In this document: in pieces, positions 26,212 through 30,469 of the stretch
Layout: every line of letters begins with the position of its first letter
Numbering within the stretch: the stretch's first letter is position 1
Source of the DNA: Rhodoferax sp.
GTDB taxonomy: Bacteria > Pseudomonadota > Gammaproteobacteria > Burkholderiales > Burkholderiaceae_C
NCBI RefSeq assembly: GCF_012927445.1
Contig: NZ_JABBPD010000004.1
Coordinates: 529,039-593,038, forward strand
Direction: 5' to 3'
Length of the DNA stretch: 64,000 nucleotides
Position numbers and translations under genes: made by a program
Notes under the pieces: model-generated
Seen by the model: the letters and a program-made list of their open reading frames with translations, nothing else
Databases searched by the model: none
Told to the model about the DNA's origin: nothing

Positions 26212-26299
26212 GGAAGCGTGGCAGAGTGGCCGATTGCACTAGTCTTGAAAACTAGCAAACCGAAAGGTTTCGTGAGTTCGAATCTCACCGCTTCCGCCA
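26212..26299 (+). tRNA. tRNA-Ser(TGA)
   Basis: GGAAGCG/CGCTTCC acceptor, anticodon arm CTAGT-CTTGAAA-ACTAG, long variable arm, GTTCGAATC T-loop, encoded CCA. Confidence 0.97.
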
Positions 26300-26328
26300 A
26301 ATACTGAGCCCCATGCGGGCTCCCGGTC

Positions 26329-26400
26329 TGTGCTATTAAGCATAAAGTGACCATTTGGACAAGTTATGCCTTATTTCCCAATTGGCCACATTTTGCTTTA
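26329..26400. repeat. tRNA-proximal transposon end with three 17-bp TnsB-like sites
   Basis: TTAAGCATAAAGTGACC (26336-26352, inverted), GGACAAGTTATGCCTTA (26357-26373) and GGCCACATTTTGCTTTA (26384-26400); each 14/17 to GGYCAACTTATGCTTTA. Confidence 0.8.
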
Positions 26401-26469
26401 CTGGAACTTTGTGCTAGGAATCCAATGCGACGCTCAGCCACTGGTAGGCTAATTTCAAAAAAACAATCT

Positions 26470-26505
26470 AAGCTCACCGATACAAAATCGAGTGGGCTTT
26501 TTTTT
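26470..26505 (+). terminator. Intrinsic terminator inside the transposon end region
   Basis: AAGCTCAC-CGAT...ATCG-A-GTGGGCTT stem followed by a T-run. Confidence 0.7.
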
Positions 26506-26613
26506 GCCCAGCCCTGTTGGGGTTCACGCCCAACACACTGTGGGCTTCGCCCGAACTGCACTGGGACTTTGGCTTGTTACTACTGCGCGCAACAACACTC
26601 AGGGACCGCACTC

Positions 26614-26735
26614 ATGCTCACTGGCGAGCTACGCAGCCAAATCGACGCTATCTGGAATTCATTCTGAACCGGCGGCATCTCCAACCCATTGGAGGTGATG
26701 AAGAAAATCACTTACCTGCTTCGACGAACTATGCG
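26614..26735 (+). pseudogene. hsdM: Type I restriction-modification methyltransferase (HsdM) N-terminal relic
   Basis: MLTGELRSQIDAIWNSF*TGGISNPLEVMKKITYLL resembles HsdM N-termini (IDxIWxxFWSGGIxNPLxVIEQITYLL); TGA where Trp is expected, and similarity is lost after about 36 codons. Confidence 0.75.
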
Positions 26736-26875
26736 GACCAGTTGACGGCAGTCATGTGATGCGACATCAACCCAGTCAATGGACTTCGCATCATGCCGCG
26801 CCTTCCAAAAGCTGAAGAGGCTGCCCGAAAAAGGCCACGGGTTCGTCCCTGCTCGCAACACTAGACGTCTTGGAA

Positions 26876-27862
26876 TTACAGGTGGTTATAGAAAACCGGT
26901 TCCTTGAGCGGATTGATTTCGTTTGGAAGAATTCCATCGACAGCCGGCAGCAGCTCATCATCTGCAGAAGTCATCGGCTCGATTCGAGAGCTGTAGTCAA
27001 CTCCTCCGAAAATCTTGTCAATTCCTTTAACGATTGGGGCTAGTCCATCATTGACTTTTACCATCAAACTGCGCTCATTCTCTGGGAGCAGAAACTGCAA
27101 GAGATATGGCTTAACTCCCGCGCCCATCTCGATACCCAGTGCGGTGTTCAGCAACCCTGAAGTCTTAGTCACGAACGTGCTCATTTCATTTTTCTTGGCA
27201 ATCGAGTACGAGCTCAAGGTAATGAGCTTTCCCTCAAGTGGAAATGAGATGGCAAAGACATCTTTTCTCGTCGGAATGGGAGACATGCGTTCAAACATAC
27301 CTCTCTCCTGGTACCAACGGACTTTGACTTTGATTTGACCGCGGAATTCGTAAAGCCCCGCCTGCACAGGGGCCGCGTATCGCTCTTGAAACGCTGCCGC
27401 CACCTTTTCATAGTCCTTGTTATTGGCGCAACCATCACTGCATGGCAATAACACGAGACGAGGGATGGTTCCTATCTTGTCCTTGCGTTGATTGATTCGG
27501 TCCATGGCCTCTTTATCGCCAATACCTTCGAGTACCAATGAGTTGGTAATTTCAGGCATGTTTTCCGACTTTCGGTACCTTAGAAGCAGATGCTTTTTGT
27601 CTGCGTATCTGGCTTGGATACTCGGATTCTGGTTGACGATAGGCTCATTCGCTAATGAGTCAGTTGGCTTTTTTTCACTCAAATTCGTGACTTCTGAAAT
27701 GACCTGGGAGGCTACAGCCGGTTGGTCAATGATGGTGATGCTGGAAGCTACCGCAGCACTGTCCTTTTCGACATCCAACCCAAGAGCTCCTTCATTACCT
27801 ACCGCCCACGCGTTCAGTGCAAAAGCCAAACCCAGAAAACCAAATTTCTTGATGTTTTTCAC
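26876..27862 (-). CDS. Uncharacterised secreted protein A (328 aa), downstream of riboswitch
   Basis: GTG start at 27862 gives VKNIKKFGFLGLAFALNAWA, a Sec-type signal peptide; the longer ORF call runs into the terminator; no family recognised. Confidence 0.75.
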   Translation of the reverse strand: MKNIKKFGFLGLAFALNAWAVGNEGALGLDVEKDSAAVASSITIIDQPAVASQVISEVTNLSEKKPTDSLANEPIVNQNPSIQARYADKKHLLLRYRKSENMPEITNSLVLEGIGDKEAMDRINQRKDKIGTIPRLVLLPCSDGCANNKDYEKVAAAFQERYAAPVQAGLYEFRGQIKVKVRWYQERGMFERMSPIPTRKDVFAISFPLEGKLITLSSYSIAKKNEMSTFVTKTSGLLNTALGIEMGAGVKPYLLQFLLPENERSLMVKVNDGLAPIVKGIDKIFGGVDYSSRIEPMTSADDELLPAVDGILPNEINPLKEPVFYNHL

Positions 27863-27886
27863 GTCTCTAACCTTCAACTCAAATAC

Positions 27887-27920
27887 AAAAAAACCCTCAA
27901 CCAATTGCTTGGTGGAGGGC
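27887..27920 (-). terminator. Intrinsic terminator, expression platform of the minus-strand riboswitch
   Basis: Minus strand GCCCTCCACCAA-GCAA-TTGGTTGAGGGT followed by TTTTTT. Confidence 0.85.
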
Positions 27921-27954
27921 AGATACTGAATCTATCAATGAACCTGCAAATGCA

Positions 27955-28038
27955 AATTCTGCAACCCCGTACCGTAGTTTTTGACCTCAGGCCGGAAGCT
28001 TTGCGTCTCAGCCTTTCGACCGATTTGCCTCGTGGCAG
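27955..28038 (-). promoter_or_regulatory. c-di-GMP-I (GEMM-I) riboswitch aptamer, minus strand
   Basis: GAGGCAAA-UCGGUC-GAAA-GGCUGA-GACGCAAAGCUUCCGG-CCUGAG...UACGG-UACGGGGUUGC: GAAA tetraloop, receptor-like motif, and G20/A47/C92-equivalent positions present. Confidence 0.9.
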
Positions 28039-28320
28039 CGAGTCTATCAACTTAAAGCTGCCTTCTTGGGTTATCCAAGGTAGGTGGGTTGGGTATCTGC
28101 TTCGCTAATCGCTGTTGGCAGCCTGCTGGGGAGACCACCAAGGACGCAAGGTTTTGAGCACTTCGCATGACAGGCCTTGCCAGCCCTCCGGCCAAATGGA
28201 ACGTAGGAACTCTTTTGCCAACGAAAAATGTGACCTGAATTGCCAGGCCTCAACAAATGGCGGCCATCCGACACCTAACTCAGTCCAGATTTTCAGTTCC
28301 ACCTAAAAAGTCATTTATGA

Positions 28321-28404
28321 TTTCGCCTGGGCAAACCCTCTGAAAAGTGGGGACGCAAAGCCACCGACCTACGGAGCAATCTATGGTAGCGGAGCCGCTG
28401 GGAG
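28321..28404 (+). promoter_or_regulatory. c-di-GMP-I (GEMM-I) riboswitch aptamer, plus strand
   Basis: GGGCAAA-CCCUCU-GAAA-AGUGGG-GACGCAAAGCCACCGA-CCUACG-GAGCAAUC-UAUGG-UAGCGGAGCCGC: near-canonical 11-nt receptor; G20 = 28330, A47 = 28357, C92 = 28398 equivalents. Confidence 0.93.
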
Positions 28405-28430
28405 TGAAGACTCTCATCGAGCATTTGCGA

Positions 28431-28463
28431 AAGCCCGTTGCCTGCATGGTCACGGGCTTTTTT
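28431..28463 (+). terminator. Intrinsic terminator, expression platform of the plus-strand riboswitch
   Basis: AAGCCCGT...ACGGGCTT stem followed by TTTT, about 50 nt before the ATG at 28512. Confidence 0.85.
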
Positions 28464-28511
28464 GTTGCTCAGTCGATTGGCCCACGACCAAATAAACACG
28501 GAAAACTCTCA

Positions 28512-29903
28512 ATGTATTTGCCAGAAATTCGTTTTACTAAGCTATCCACGCTTGTGGTATCTCTGGCTATCTCTGGCCTTGCACATGCACATCCCTTGGA
28601 TTTCTTGACCCCCGAGCAGCGGGTGTTCATGATGAACAAGTTTCTGCAGTCTCAAAATGAACTGCTCGTTCAACCAGGGAAATCTGGAGCAGCAGATGGC
28701 AGCGGCGCAACGCCATTGACGCTGGAGCAACGGGTAAAGCTCCTAAACTGGTTCGTGACAGGAAAAACCGGCGATGAGGCACAAGCACCCAATAAATTGG
28801 AAGTCGCTGCGGCCAAGCCTGTTATTGCATCTGCCCCTGCGCTTTCGCAGCCGGCACCTGCTGCCGCCCAAAACAATGAAGCAAGCTTGGCGGCTGAGCT
28901 CGACAAATGGGCTGCTCTTCCATCTGGAGTCAAGTTTGAACGGTTCCGTGACGGCTTTGCCATCAATCAAACCCGATACCTCGACCCAGAGGGACGCATC
29001 GTTTCCTATGGCTTTGACGAACAATCAGGTGACTTTACCTATCTTGTACAGAGCGGAAGTGGGCAATTTCTCTTGAAATCAGGCCGTGCCTCAAGCGGGA
29101 ACGAACCCATTGAAATCGGCAAGGCCGAATTGCGAGGGTCCCTATGGGCGGTGACAACGGTTACCGGTAGAAAATTCACGGGCAGAAGGTTGATTCCGCT
29201 TGCTCGGGGGTTCATCGTCGCTCGCGACAACACTGGGTATCGTTATGTTCCGGGCAAAGGCATGACCTCTTTTGCAGCCCCGGAACAGTTCTCCATCGCG
29301 GCACTCCAAAGCGGAAACGTCTCTGGAACTGGTTACATCCTGCTCGAACGGACGCCAGAAGAACAAGCCATGGCAAATAACAGCGTGAGCGCGCTCTTTA
29401 GTAGCGTGAAAGCACTGGGAAGCACCCTCGGAATAGGTAAGAAAGAGGATTACGCCCTGCTGAATATCGATTCCAAAAAACTTGTTCCCATCAACATCTC
29501 CATGGAGGATAAGCGTGTTCAAGTGATGAGCGTCTGTCGCAGGCAAAACTTCATCATGGCGGAGTGCGAGCGGATGGACTCTTACGAAAGCCTGTTTCAG
29601 CCCAATGGGATGCACAACATGACGCACTACTTCTGGCGCATCAATTGGTTCAATGCCGGTGGTCGTCCGATTCTTGTTTCACAAGAAGGTGGATTGACGA
29701 AAGTTGCAGCAACCGATTTGGGTACGGGGAAAAAAGCCATGATTTTTGAGCGCGTAATGGGTATTGCTTCTTTCAATGCTGACCAGGGTGTGGACGGCAG
29801 AATTTCGGTTTCTGCACAGATGGGGTTCAGTACAGAGAAAAAAGACGATATCGTTTCACTGCTGGACTCATCGACACAGGTCTCTTCAAAAGACCCCGAG
29901 TGA
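28512..29903 (+). CDS. Uncharacterised secreted protein B (463 aa), downstream of riboswitch
   Basis: MYLPEIRFTKLSTLVVSLAISGLAHA signal peptide, Ala/Pro-rich linker, apparently beta-strand-rich C-terminal region; the upstream ORF extension overlaps the riboswitch and is not credible. Confidence 0.8.
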   Translation: MYLPEIRFTKLSTLVVSLAISGLAHAHPLDFLTPEQRVFMMNKFLQSQNELLVQPGKSGAADGSGATPLTLEQRVKLLNWFVTGKTGDEAQAPNKLEVAAAKPVIASAPALSQPAPAAAQNNEASLAAELDKWAALPSGVKFERFRDGFAINQTRYLDPEGRIVSYGFDEQSGDFTYLVQSGSGQFLLKSGRASSGNEPIEIGKAELRGSLWAVTTVTGRKFTGRRLIPLARGFIVARDNTGYRYVPGKGMTSFAAPEQFSIAALQSGNVSGTGYILLERTPEEQAMANNSVSALFSSVKALGSTLGIGKKEDYALLNIDSKKLVPINISMEDKRVQVMSVCRRQNFIMAECERMDSYESLFQPNGMHNMTHYFWRINWFNAGGRPILVSQEGGLTKVAATDLGTGKKAMIFERVMGIASFNADQGVDGRISVSAQMGFSTEKKDDIVSLLDSSTQVSSKDPE

Positions 29904-29932
29904 CCCTCAGAGCAGTCGCTTAGCTCGTTTAC

Positions 29933-29961
29933 GGCCCTCCGCTATTCGGCCGAGGGCTTTT
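29933..29961 (+). terminator. Possible terminator after protein B
   Basis: GCCCTC...GAGGGC stem followed by TTTT. Confidence 0.45.
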
Positions 29962-30064
29962 GCCATACTGGCGAGAGACGCAGCAACATAGACGCAGATG
30001 AGCACTCCCAGACCGAAATCAGTCGACAAAAAAACTGGCAGCGTTTGCGACGAGTTTTTTCTTT

Positions 30065-30195
30065 GGTCAACTTATGCTTTATTTTTCACCGTTAGGCCAA
30101 CTTATGCTTTAACGGTCACGCCGTGATGACCGTTTTGAACAGGGAAACGGTCATCAATTGCTTTATTCTGCGGTCATTTTTCACTTAACGGCACA
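30065..30195. repeat. Distal transposon end with four 17-bp TnsB-like sites ending in ACA
   Basis: GGTCAACTTATGCTTTA (30065), GGCCAACTTATGCTTTA (30095), GGTCATCAATTGCTTTA (30149) and GGTCATTTTTCACTTAA (30172), then CGGCACA. Confidence 0.85.
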
Positions 30196-30469
30196 CGGTC
30201 CTTCAGCACATCTGCCCACGGTTGCCCGTCCTGCGGTAACACTCAAGTGGGACCGTCTTGCCTTCAGGCAGCGGCAGACCAATGCATGTCCCCGTCCAAA
30301 AATCCACTTCTGATAACGCAATGGCCTGTTCATTCCATAGCAGTTCTTTCTAGATATTTTGAGAAAAATCAAGCGTTGACAAGCAGGTCAGCCCAGACTA
30401 CGCCCTAAGCCCAACCCGACGGGATTGGAAGGAAGTCACTGCTTCTTATGAAACAAATGTGGAGGTTTC

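Follow-up and report, generated by a model that had tools for sequence, protein, structure and literature searches.

A transposase-less island beside tRNA-Ser(TGA) of Rhodoferax sp., a probable derivative of the TnsAB-fusion clade of Tn7-like transposons

INTRODUCTION

How does an island of low G+C content come to lie at a defined distance behind a tRNA gene when it encodes no transposase of its own? The question is raised by a stretch of 64,000 nucleotides from Rhodoferax sp. (assembly GCF_012927445.1, contig NZ_JABBPD010000004.1, positions 529,039 to 593,038), here called the window, in which a tRNA-Ser(TGA) gene (26212 to 26299, plus strand; predicted by ARAGORN and scored at 56.7 bits by the Rfam tRNA model) is followed by a 3,867-bp element with TGT...ACA termini (26329 to 30195, plus strand). 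An initial annotation, made from the sequence of the window, described this element as a Tn7-like mini-transposon with intact ends and a target duplication but without transposase. According to our analysis, this transposase-less element very probably derives from a betaproteobacterial branch within the TnsAB-fusion clade of Tn7-like transposons.

RESULTS AND DISCUSSION

Boundaries and ends of the element

The spacer between the CCA of the tRNA and the TGT of the element measures 29 nt (26300 to 26328, plus strand), and its last five nucleotides (26324 to 26328) are the left copy of a target-site duplication, CGGTC, the right copy of which (30196 to 30200, plus strand) directly follows the element; both copies were read directly. 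The element starts at 26329 with TGTGCTATTAAGCATAAAGTGACC and finishes at 30195 with ...GGTCATTTTTCACTTAACGGCACA, and the terminal inverted repeat is imperfect, 18 of 24 positions matching between TGTGCTAT... and ...GGCACA. When we re-read the sequence, we recovered every structural feature that the initial annotation had listed, namely the TGT/ACA ends, the extent of the inverted repeat, the exact duplication, the length, and the distance from the CCA. The G+C content is about 0.49 inside the element and about 0.63 around it, and a Logan contig from the same organism spans positions 26283 to 30225 at 99.95% identity.

Both ends carry arrays of a 16-nt site resembling AAAGCATAAGTTGRCC, which occurs seven times in the element, three times in the tRNA-proximal (left) end and four times in the tRNA-distal (right) end. 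The left end (26329 to 26434, plus strand; about 106 bp) consists of the TGTGCTAT terminus, site L1 (26337 to 26352, plus strand) in inward orientation, sites L2 (26357 to 26372, minus strand) and L3 (26384 to 26399, minus strand), both inverted, and then a conserved CTTTGTGCTAGGAA motif. The right end (30065 to 30195, minus strand; about 131 bp) holds R4 (30065 to 30080), R3 (30095 to 30110), R2 (30149 to 30164; 15.8 bits), and R1 (30172 to 30187; 11.8 bits), all on the minus strand and all pointing inward, and finishes with ...GGCACA. The left end of the window element is complete in alignment with those of related elements; 18 left ends (the window and 17 others, autonomous elements included), from several targets and genera, align without gaps over about 75 to 95 nt, and the left-end sites in the window score as high as those of autonomous elements. 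From about position 26435 onward, there is homology to the hsdM-upstream region of a congener.

A scan of the 3.94-Mb genome for the site, with a matrix built partly from the window's own sites, returned 74 matches of at least 13 bits, whose sole cluster is the element of the window; six matches reached at least 20 bits, five of them inside the element. An exact-core search with up to three mismatches agreed with the matrix scan and returned only this element. No other copy of the window ends was detected in this genome with the end sequences, the core motif, or the site scan, and a single copy sets the element apart from a MITE (a miniature transposable element with inverted repeats), for which multiple near-identical copies or copies at several sites would be expected. 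A lone 28-nt stretch elsewhere in the same genome (G000 C3, 564331 to 564358; locus L010, about 1500 to 1530) matches the L1-L2 palindrome (GTGACCATTTGGTCAAGTTATCGCTTATG) at 89%; it has no TGT terminus and no further sites, and it is a chance match or a very old scar.

The only long open reading frames (ORFs) of the element are two, here called genes A and B, and a tblastn search of the element with related TnsAB, TnsC, and TniQ proteins gave a best E value of 0.1 and revealed no tns remnant, so that the reported lack of a transposase was borne out. Since tRNA genes are the classical attachment (att) sites of integrases and the island is low in G+C, one may think of a genomic island inserted by a tyrosine or serine integrase, or of an inverted repeat and a duplication that arose by chance. 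We regard either as hardly credible: the element has no integrase gene, its 5-bp duplication lies outside the tRNA and does not repeat the tRNA 3' end, and seven arrayed sites that are conserved across genera cannot be due to chance.

Related elements that encode transposition proteins

The initial annotation proposed that elements with matching ends and tns genes be sought in relatives, and they were found, in Herminiimonas fonticola, R. wenshanensis (Ralstonia), and G300, a genome of the host's family, among others. When 185,579 species genomes were scanned for exact matches to a pattern from the L1 terminus, four loci emerged, among them a congener (G026) and the Oxalobacteraceae genome UBA8502, both of which carry the end 30 nt after tRNA-Ser(TGA) with the same L1/L2/L3 layout. 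A second pattern scan, for the tRNA-Ser 3' end followed after 26 to 32 nt by TGTGCNNTWAAG, returned 13 loci. Window-type ends are present 28 to 31 nt after tRNA-Ser(TGA) at 14 loci, the window counted, and at one more in Paucimonas. Larger versions at this tRNA gene, which were likewise to be sought, are represented by H. fonticola, with a full tns set, and by the 20-kb element of G066, the metagenome-assembled genome (MAG) MFD03899.

A search of a plasmid database with the window ends led to Ralstonia wenshanensis p56D2 and otherwise to one weak stray match in Cytobacillus. On p56D2, the tns genes point toward a homologous left end located 29 nt from a tRNA-like gene. They encode a 901-aa DDE protein in which TnsA and TnsB are fused (domains TnsA-like_N [PF08722], HTH_Tnp_Mu_2, rve, and Mu-transpos_C), a 345-aa TnsC (TniB/AAA_22 ATPase), and a 432-aa TnsD-like TniQ with TniQ and HTH domains. 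No cas genes are annotated beside this tns module, the one module among the relatives that was inspected for them. The attachment gene in Ralstonia (L063, 38216 to 38292; also L064 and L070) is 77 nt long and tRNA-like, and ARAGORN leaves its anticodon unassigned ("tRNA-???").

Homologues of the R. wenshanensis TnsAB occur in Ralstonia, Paraburkholderia, Rhodocyclaceae, Uliginosibacterium, and Dechloromonas. At six of eight further TnsAB loci, a TGTGCCGTTAAG-type end lies about 2.5 kb downstream of TnsAB and 28 to 31 nt from a tRNA gene or a tRNA 3' remnant, the targets being tRNA-Gly(CCC), tRNA-Val(CAC), or the tRNA-like gene; a window-type end was not located at the Paraburkholderia TnsAB locus. 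Paraburkholderia bryophila (L065, 9792 to 12470) has two tandem tniQ genes after tnsC, whose products are about 48% identical to the Ralstonia TniQ, and this arrangement suggests dual target selectors. Of 400 genomes sampled from the taxonomic family of the host, one (G300) carries intact tnsAB-tnsC-tniQ genes, with 59% TnsAB identity, and this sibling (L117, 15381 to 15950; G300:C7) is inserted 30 nt after ssrA, the gene for tmRNA, with the same left end. The targets of the TniQ repertoire thus include, besides tRNAs, tmRNA with its tRNA-like end.

In the PDB, the H. fonticola TnsAB has a full-length match in chain M of entry 9bw1 (E = 4.6e-136) and the H. fonticola TniQ a match in the TnsD chain of 8v32/9bw1 (E = 1.8e-22); we take these entries to be the transpososome TnsABCD of PmcCAST, one of the CRISPR-associated transposons (CASTs). 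The claim of a Tn7-like element that has lost its transposition genes therefore holds up, given that relatives with homologous ends encode a TnsA-TnsB fusion, TnsC/TniB, and TniQ/TnsD at the same distance from tRNA genes. The further claim of guidance by TnsD/TniQ or by CRISPR stands in its first part, in view of the TniQ/TnsD proteins of these relatives, and fails in its second, no cas genes or CRISPR arrays having been found in the window element by its ORF list and an inspection for repeats, and no cas genes being annotated beside the R. wenshanensis module. A tRNA-Ser(TGA)-targeting system in the lineage of the host, likewise proposed, is found at the level of the order (Oxalobacteraceae, Ralstonia, and others), with the ssrA sibling in the host's family, and no close TnsAB was found in the genome itself or in 143 congeners.

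Other genes next to related ends were considered as transposition genes and dismissed. The conserved ORFs beside the Pollutimonas ends, taken as a candidate for a new transposition module, proved by Pfam to be ordinary metabolic paralogues, and the remaining neighbours of related ends turned out to be cargo or an ISL3 insertion. In Pollutimonas nitritireducens (L061, 9101 to 10400), the element lies 29 nt after tRNA-Val(CAC) and an insertion sequence (IS) of the ISL3 family directly follows site L2; the same IS is present again on another contig, immediately outside a right-type end (L059, 1 to 130).

Insertion at a fixed distance from tRNA genes

The spacers at the 14 tRNA-Ser loci are 28 to 31 nt long and mutually unrelated in sequence. 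With the CCA-to-TGT distance fixed and the spacers unrelated, the conserved landmark is the tRNA gene, and in the window we presume that tRNA-Ser(TGA) determines the attachment site and would be recognised by the TniQ/TnsD of related elements. The same spacing of 28 to 31 nt is seen at the tRNA-Gly, tRNA-Val, tRNA-like, and ssrA sites, for about 25 independent loci overall. In the TniQ tree, the proteins group by target (tRNA-Ser, 92/93; tRNA-Gly, 100/100; Ralstonia tRNA-like gene, 96/96), with that of tRNA-Val on its own branch.

These data also bear on whether the element might come from a different DDE family that has TG..CA ends and duplicates 5 bp (Tn5053/Tn402, Mu-like, Tn552, or IS21) and adjoin the tRNA by coincidence. 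It is established that those families, too, have TGT/ACA termini, duplications of 5 bp, and subterminal repeats, and the ATPase of the relatives matches the Pfam TniB model. However, the transposase of elements with these ends is a TnsA-like endonuclease fused to TnsB, and Tn5053, Mu, and IS21 have no such domain; the closest relative with a solved structure is a TnsAB-type chain that was deposited with a TnsD chain; and a distance of 28 to 31 nt repeated at so many independent tRNA and ssrA loci is not a coincidence. We consider this explanation very improbable.

All three elements for which both ends were identified are flanked by 5-bp duplications: CGGTC in the window, AGGTC in G066, and AAAAC in R. 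wenshanensis. Rejoining the flanks of the G066 element restores a perfect terminator hairpin with a T-run behind it. R. wenshanensis p56D2 (CP076412.1, about 1515748 to 1591186; L062, 2690 to 2900, and L063, 38116 to 38186) carries a tandem array, in which a 75-kb element bearing tns genes lies between the tRNA-like gene and an older element whose first 2.7 kb or so from the left end hold no tns genes. AAAAC is found at every junction of the array, and its presence on both sides of the 75-kb element implies that the same phosphodiester positions were used twice. The array further implies that target immunity is not absolute among these elements; a tandem arrangement is also seen in a Paucimonas MAG. 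At the H. fonticola locus, 14 nt of the terminus (TGTGCCGTTAAGCA) occur a further time within the 30-nt spacer (L073, 6496 to 6537; L087, 113 to 140), immediately ahead of the real end, and may be the scar of an earlier occupant.

We derive the proposed mechanism from the related elements and from what has been published on their cyanobacterial relatives. A TnsD-like TniQ, with its TniQ and HTH domains, would bind the tRNA gene and recruit the AAA+ ATPase TnsC, and the TnsA-TnsB fusion, assembled on the arrayed sites of both ends, would excise the element and paste it about 29 bp downstream of the tRNA, with the left end facing the tRNA, 5 bp duplicated, and the tRNA left intact.

Some results weigh against the assignment and the insertion history proposed here. 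A base-precise empty site, that is, a single CGGTC, had been expected in relatives and was not obtained: among 60 relatives, 14 tRNA-Ser flanks could be read in 13 genomes, and their spacers diverge directly after the tRNA and cannot be aligned to the window; the 143 congeners offered no closer relative for the comparison, and the joined flanks had 0 matches when metagenomes were scanned for them. With no pair of filled and empty sites, insertion is inferred from comparison within the family. On the right side, R1 and R2 are the weakest of the seven sites of the window and deviate from the site consensus. The layout of R1-R2, a gap of 40 to 55 nt, and R3-R4 recurs in G066, R. wenshanensis, and two Pollutimonas ends, a set of one autonomous element (R. 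wenshanensis) and three that are tns-less or undetermined. No right end of an autonomous tRNA-Ser element was found within 20 kb, so that the right-end comparison leans on one autonomous element; a search guided by the target-site duplication revealed no right ends in UBA8502, Paucimonas, Pollutimonas, or G026. The sites in both ends of the window element are predicted to be bound by TnsAB. Finally, the window, G066, and in part Polaromonas OV174 have a common tns-less left junction, in which the left end is followed after about 100 bp by the hsdM-upstream region, with differing spacers and duplications, and a tns-less ancestor could have moved between these sites.

Relationship to known Tn7-like systems

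A class of Tn7-like elements homing to tRNA genes is already described (PMC9881144). Most cyanobacterial members of the TnsAB-fusion clade use tRNA attachment sites, and a TnsD-like TniQ recognises these (Hsieh & Peters 2022, PMC9881144); their TnsD-guided insertions occur at 29±1 bp downstream of the tRNA, more than 99% are oriented so that the left end faces the target, their left-end sites lie in both orientations, which is said to be unique to the clade, and the TnsAB fusion carries out cut-and-paste transposition (PMC9881144). TnsD homing by CyCAST takes place 30 to 33 nt after tRNA-Leu (Faure et al. 2023, PMC10293859). Compared with this clade, which comprises McCAST (type I-D), PmcCAST (type I-B2), Tn5469, and other non-CRISPR relatives, the window agrees in the spacing of about 29 nt, in the left end facing the tRNA, and in the mixed orientation of the left-end sites (L1 plus; L2 and L3 minus), and the relatives with window-type ends likewise encode a TnsA-TnsB fusion, TnsC, and a TnsD-like TniQ and share the 5-bp duplication. 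All the hallmarks of the clade at the DNA level are thus present in the window, whereas its protein-coding hallmark is seen in the relatives and not in the window. Because the window copy has no tns genes, we file it as a derivative of the family rather than as an autonomous member. PMC12585508 concerns the PmcCAST TnsABCD transpososome.

The elements described here differ from the known members in several respects. Their hosts are Betaproteobacteria instead of cyanobacteria; they have a single TniQ (two in P. bryophila), with no cas genes or CRISPR array seen in the window element and no cas genes annotated beside the R. wenshanensis tns module; and the termini are TGT/ACA, whereas those of McCAST are TAC/GTA. 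The target set of the betaproteobacterial branch comprises tRNA-Ser(TGA), tRNA-Gly(CCC), tRNA-Val(CAC), the tRNA-like gene, and ssrA.

With Tn7 itself, which encodes TnsABC and TnsD and inserts at attTn7 downstream of glmS, these elements share TGT/ACA ends, the 5-bp duplication, asymmetric site arrays, and an oriented insertion at a fixed distance from a gene that is recognised by a TniQ-domain protein and left intact. In Tn7, however, TnsA and TnsB are separate proteins, the sites within an end all have one orientation, and the tns operon starts at the glmS-facing right end and reads inward, whereas the operon here reads outward to the tRNA-facing left end; Tn7 also has a TnsE pathway, none of which was seen here. 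Tn5053/Tn402 elements (TniA-TniB-TniQ-TniR) are alike in the TniB-type ATPase, TniQ, the TGT ends, the 5-bp duplications, and the multiple terminal repeats, but they have no TnsA domain, transpose replicatively with a resolvase, and target the res sites of plasmids and transposons.

The significance of the locus lies in several directions, although none of the results overturns current understanding. A low-G+C island by tRNA-Ser is explained as the footprint of a defined transposition pathway, and the range of the tRNA-homing TnsAB-fusion clade, previously characterised from cyanobacteria and their CASTs, is widened to an apparently CRISPR-free branch in Burkholderiales. The pairs of TniQ and target, together with the compact ends, could serve comparative studies of att recognition and orthogonal tools for site-specific integration.

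Loss of the tns genes and present mobility

The elements at tRNA-Ser loci retain their transposition genes to different degrees. H. fonticola has intact tnsAB (898 aa), tnsC, and tniQ; UBA4003 keeps tniQ and tnsC but has lost all of tnsAB except its 3' end; H. aquatilis keeps tniQ and a tnsC fragment; and UBA8502, ZZ2, and a Herbaspirillum MAG have just the tniQ 3' end beside the left end. Three intact tniQ genes adjoin tRNA-Ser(TGA). In G066, tnsAB is reduced to the part encoding the TnsA domain, 16 kb inside the 20-kb element, and in Polaromonas OV174 a solo left end sits between tRNA-Ser and hemW. Read from the gene content of these loci, they appear as a decay series with the window copy at its far end, and tns loss is a common fate among these tRNA-homing Tn7-like elements. 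Similar histories are known from Acinetobacter baumannii, with ancestral remnants at the nrdB site and Tn6022 arrays, where att sites gather elements that lose tns genes or ends and where tandem or internal Tn7-like insertions happen despite target immunity (PMC11014353). Unlike the A. baumannii remnants, the window element keeps both ends and the duplication recognisable and measures only 3.9 kb. A literature search for natural non-autonomous Tn7-like elements gave nothing specific.

We propose that a larger element was inserted and that an internal deletion or replacement then removed tniQ-tnsC-tnsAB and most of a type I restriction-modification (R-M) system, which would have left two divergent genes for secreted proteins, each with a riboswitch for cyclic di-GMP (c-di-GMP). 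Decay in place appears likelier than arrival as a mini-element, because tns loss is nested in the relatives; the hsdM stub described below, as a deletion scar, is counted for it too. Alternatively, and less probably though still well worth considering, the element arrived without tns genes, as a mini-transposon moved in trans by the TnsAB, TnsC, and TniQ of a transient autonomous relative, for instance one brought by an incoming plasmid or present in a donor cell, and a new helper could remobilise it. The completeness of both ends and of the duplication would fit such an arrival, as would left-end sites that score like autonomous ones, and the window, G066, and OV174 share the same tniQ-less left junction, yet with non-homologous spacers and different duplications. 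In R. wenshanensis, moreover, an element that is tns-less within about 2.7 kb of its left end stands in tandem with an autonomous one, so helpers and tns-less copies do co-occur. Against arrival in trans, there is a single copy in the genome, the cognate helper is absent from the genome and from the 143 congeners searched, no second copy of the cargo arrangement of the window was found anywhere searched, the chromosomal contexts of A and B homologues are unrelated, and the nested-deletion series accounts for tns loss without events in trans. G066 also still holds its internal tnsAB fragment, and the common ancestor of the window and G066 junction may accordingly have been autonomous.

A broader form of the same idea is that not all of the tns-less copies common among these elements (the window, G026, UBA8502, two in Paucimonas, and the inner R. 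wenshanensis element) are relics, and that they could form a pool of cargo cassettes mobilised in trans to tRNA sites by autonomous relatives. We think this unlikely. If it were true, the window element would be a cassette spreading paired secreted proteins under c-di-GMP riboswitch control, and cassettes that keep transposase-binding sites could impose target immunity on the attachment site.

Decay in place, which we prefer, leaves the question of present mobility. Our search of the host genome found no cognate helper, and among the 143 congeners no close TnsAB was detected, the best match reaching 32% over the core. With neither tns proteins of its own nor a cognate helper in the genome, the element would at present be an immobile 3.9-kb cargo island. 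Three other Tn7-like loci exist in the genome, at G000 C5 (about 555984 to 563591; TnsA and two TniQ), C7 (about 120642 to 123629; TnsB and TniQ), and C8 (about 93076 to 102760; two TniQ and rve). We discarded them as helpers, for they have no window-type sites, are not by tRNAs, and show at most 23% identity to the TnsB of the related elements.

Cargo of the element

Genes A and B are divergent and stand back to back, each behind its own riboswitch. Gene A (26876 to 27862, minus strand) encodes 328 aa with a predicted signal peptide and is preceded by a c-di-GMP-I riboswitch (27957 to 28039, minus strand; RF01051, 61.1 bits against a gathering threshold of 35, E = 1.2e-10). Only eight homologues of gene A were found among 5.8 billion clusters, in unrelated chromosomal contexts, and at the two A-family loci examined the riboswitch scores fall under the gathering threshold. 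Gene B (28512 to 29903, plus strand) encodes 463 aa with a signal peptide and follows a c-di-GMP-I-type riboswitch (28321 to 28403, plus strand; RF03167, E = 3.5e-11) whose 54.4 bits lie below the cut-off of 59; ahead of B homologues elsewhere, for example in Rhodoferax, Variovorax, and a JGI metagenome, RF01051 is found above threshold. The gene B family is common in Burkholderiales, in ordinary contexts of Comamonadaceae and Oxalobacteraceae chromosomes and there also after a c-di-GMP-I riboswitch. Neither gene has a Pfam or NCBIfam match, and A and B are predicted to be c-di-GMP-regulated secreted proteins with no known family. The element would have served the host as the vehicle for acquiring these two proteins.

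The AlphaFold2 model of protein B (mean predicted local distance difference test, 78.5) is beta-rich and propeller-like, following a disordered Ala/Pro-rich linker, and its matches in the PDB are merely generic WD40/Kelch-like ones (template-modelling score of at most 0.37). Two cysteines of protein B, C342 and C352, are invariant.

Between the left end and gene A lies a pseudogene of hsdM, the methylase gene of a type I R-M system (26614 to 26745, plus strand), which retains the first approximately 43 codons, with an in-frame TGA at Trp18, and is then truncated. The stub translates as MLTGELRSQIDAIWNSF*, and the intact 531-aa homologue in the congener G014, with HsdM_N and N6_Mtase domains, starts with MLTGELRSQIDAIWNSFWTGGISNP... 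At the DNA level, the stub is 84 to 92% identical to the hsdM 5' ends of many congeners. For the hsdM 5' end at 26589 to 26720 of the window, this identity of 84 to 92% in about 20 congeners far exceeds that of the flanking genes, which suggests that a type I R-M system has been spreading recently in the genus.

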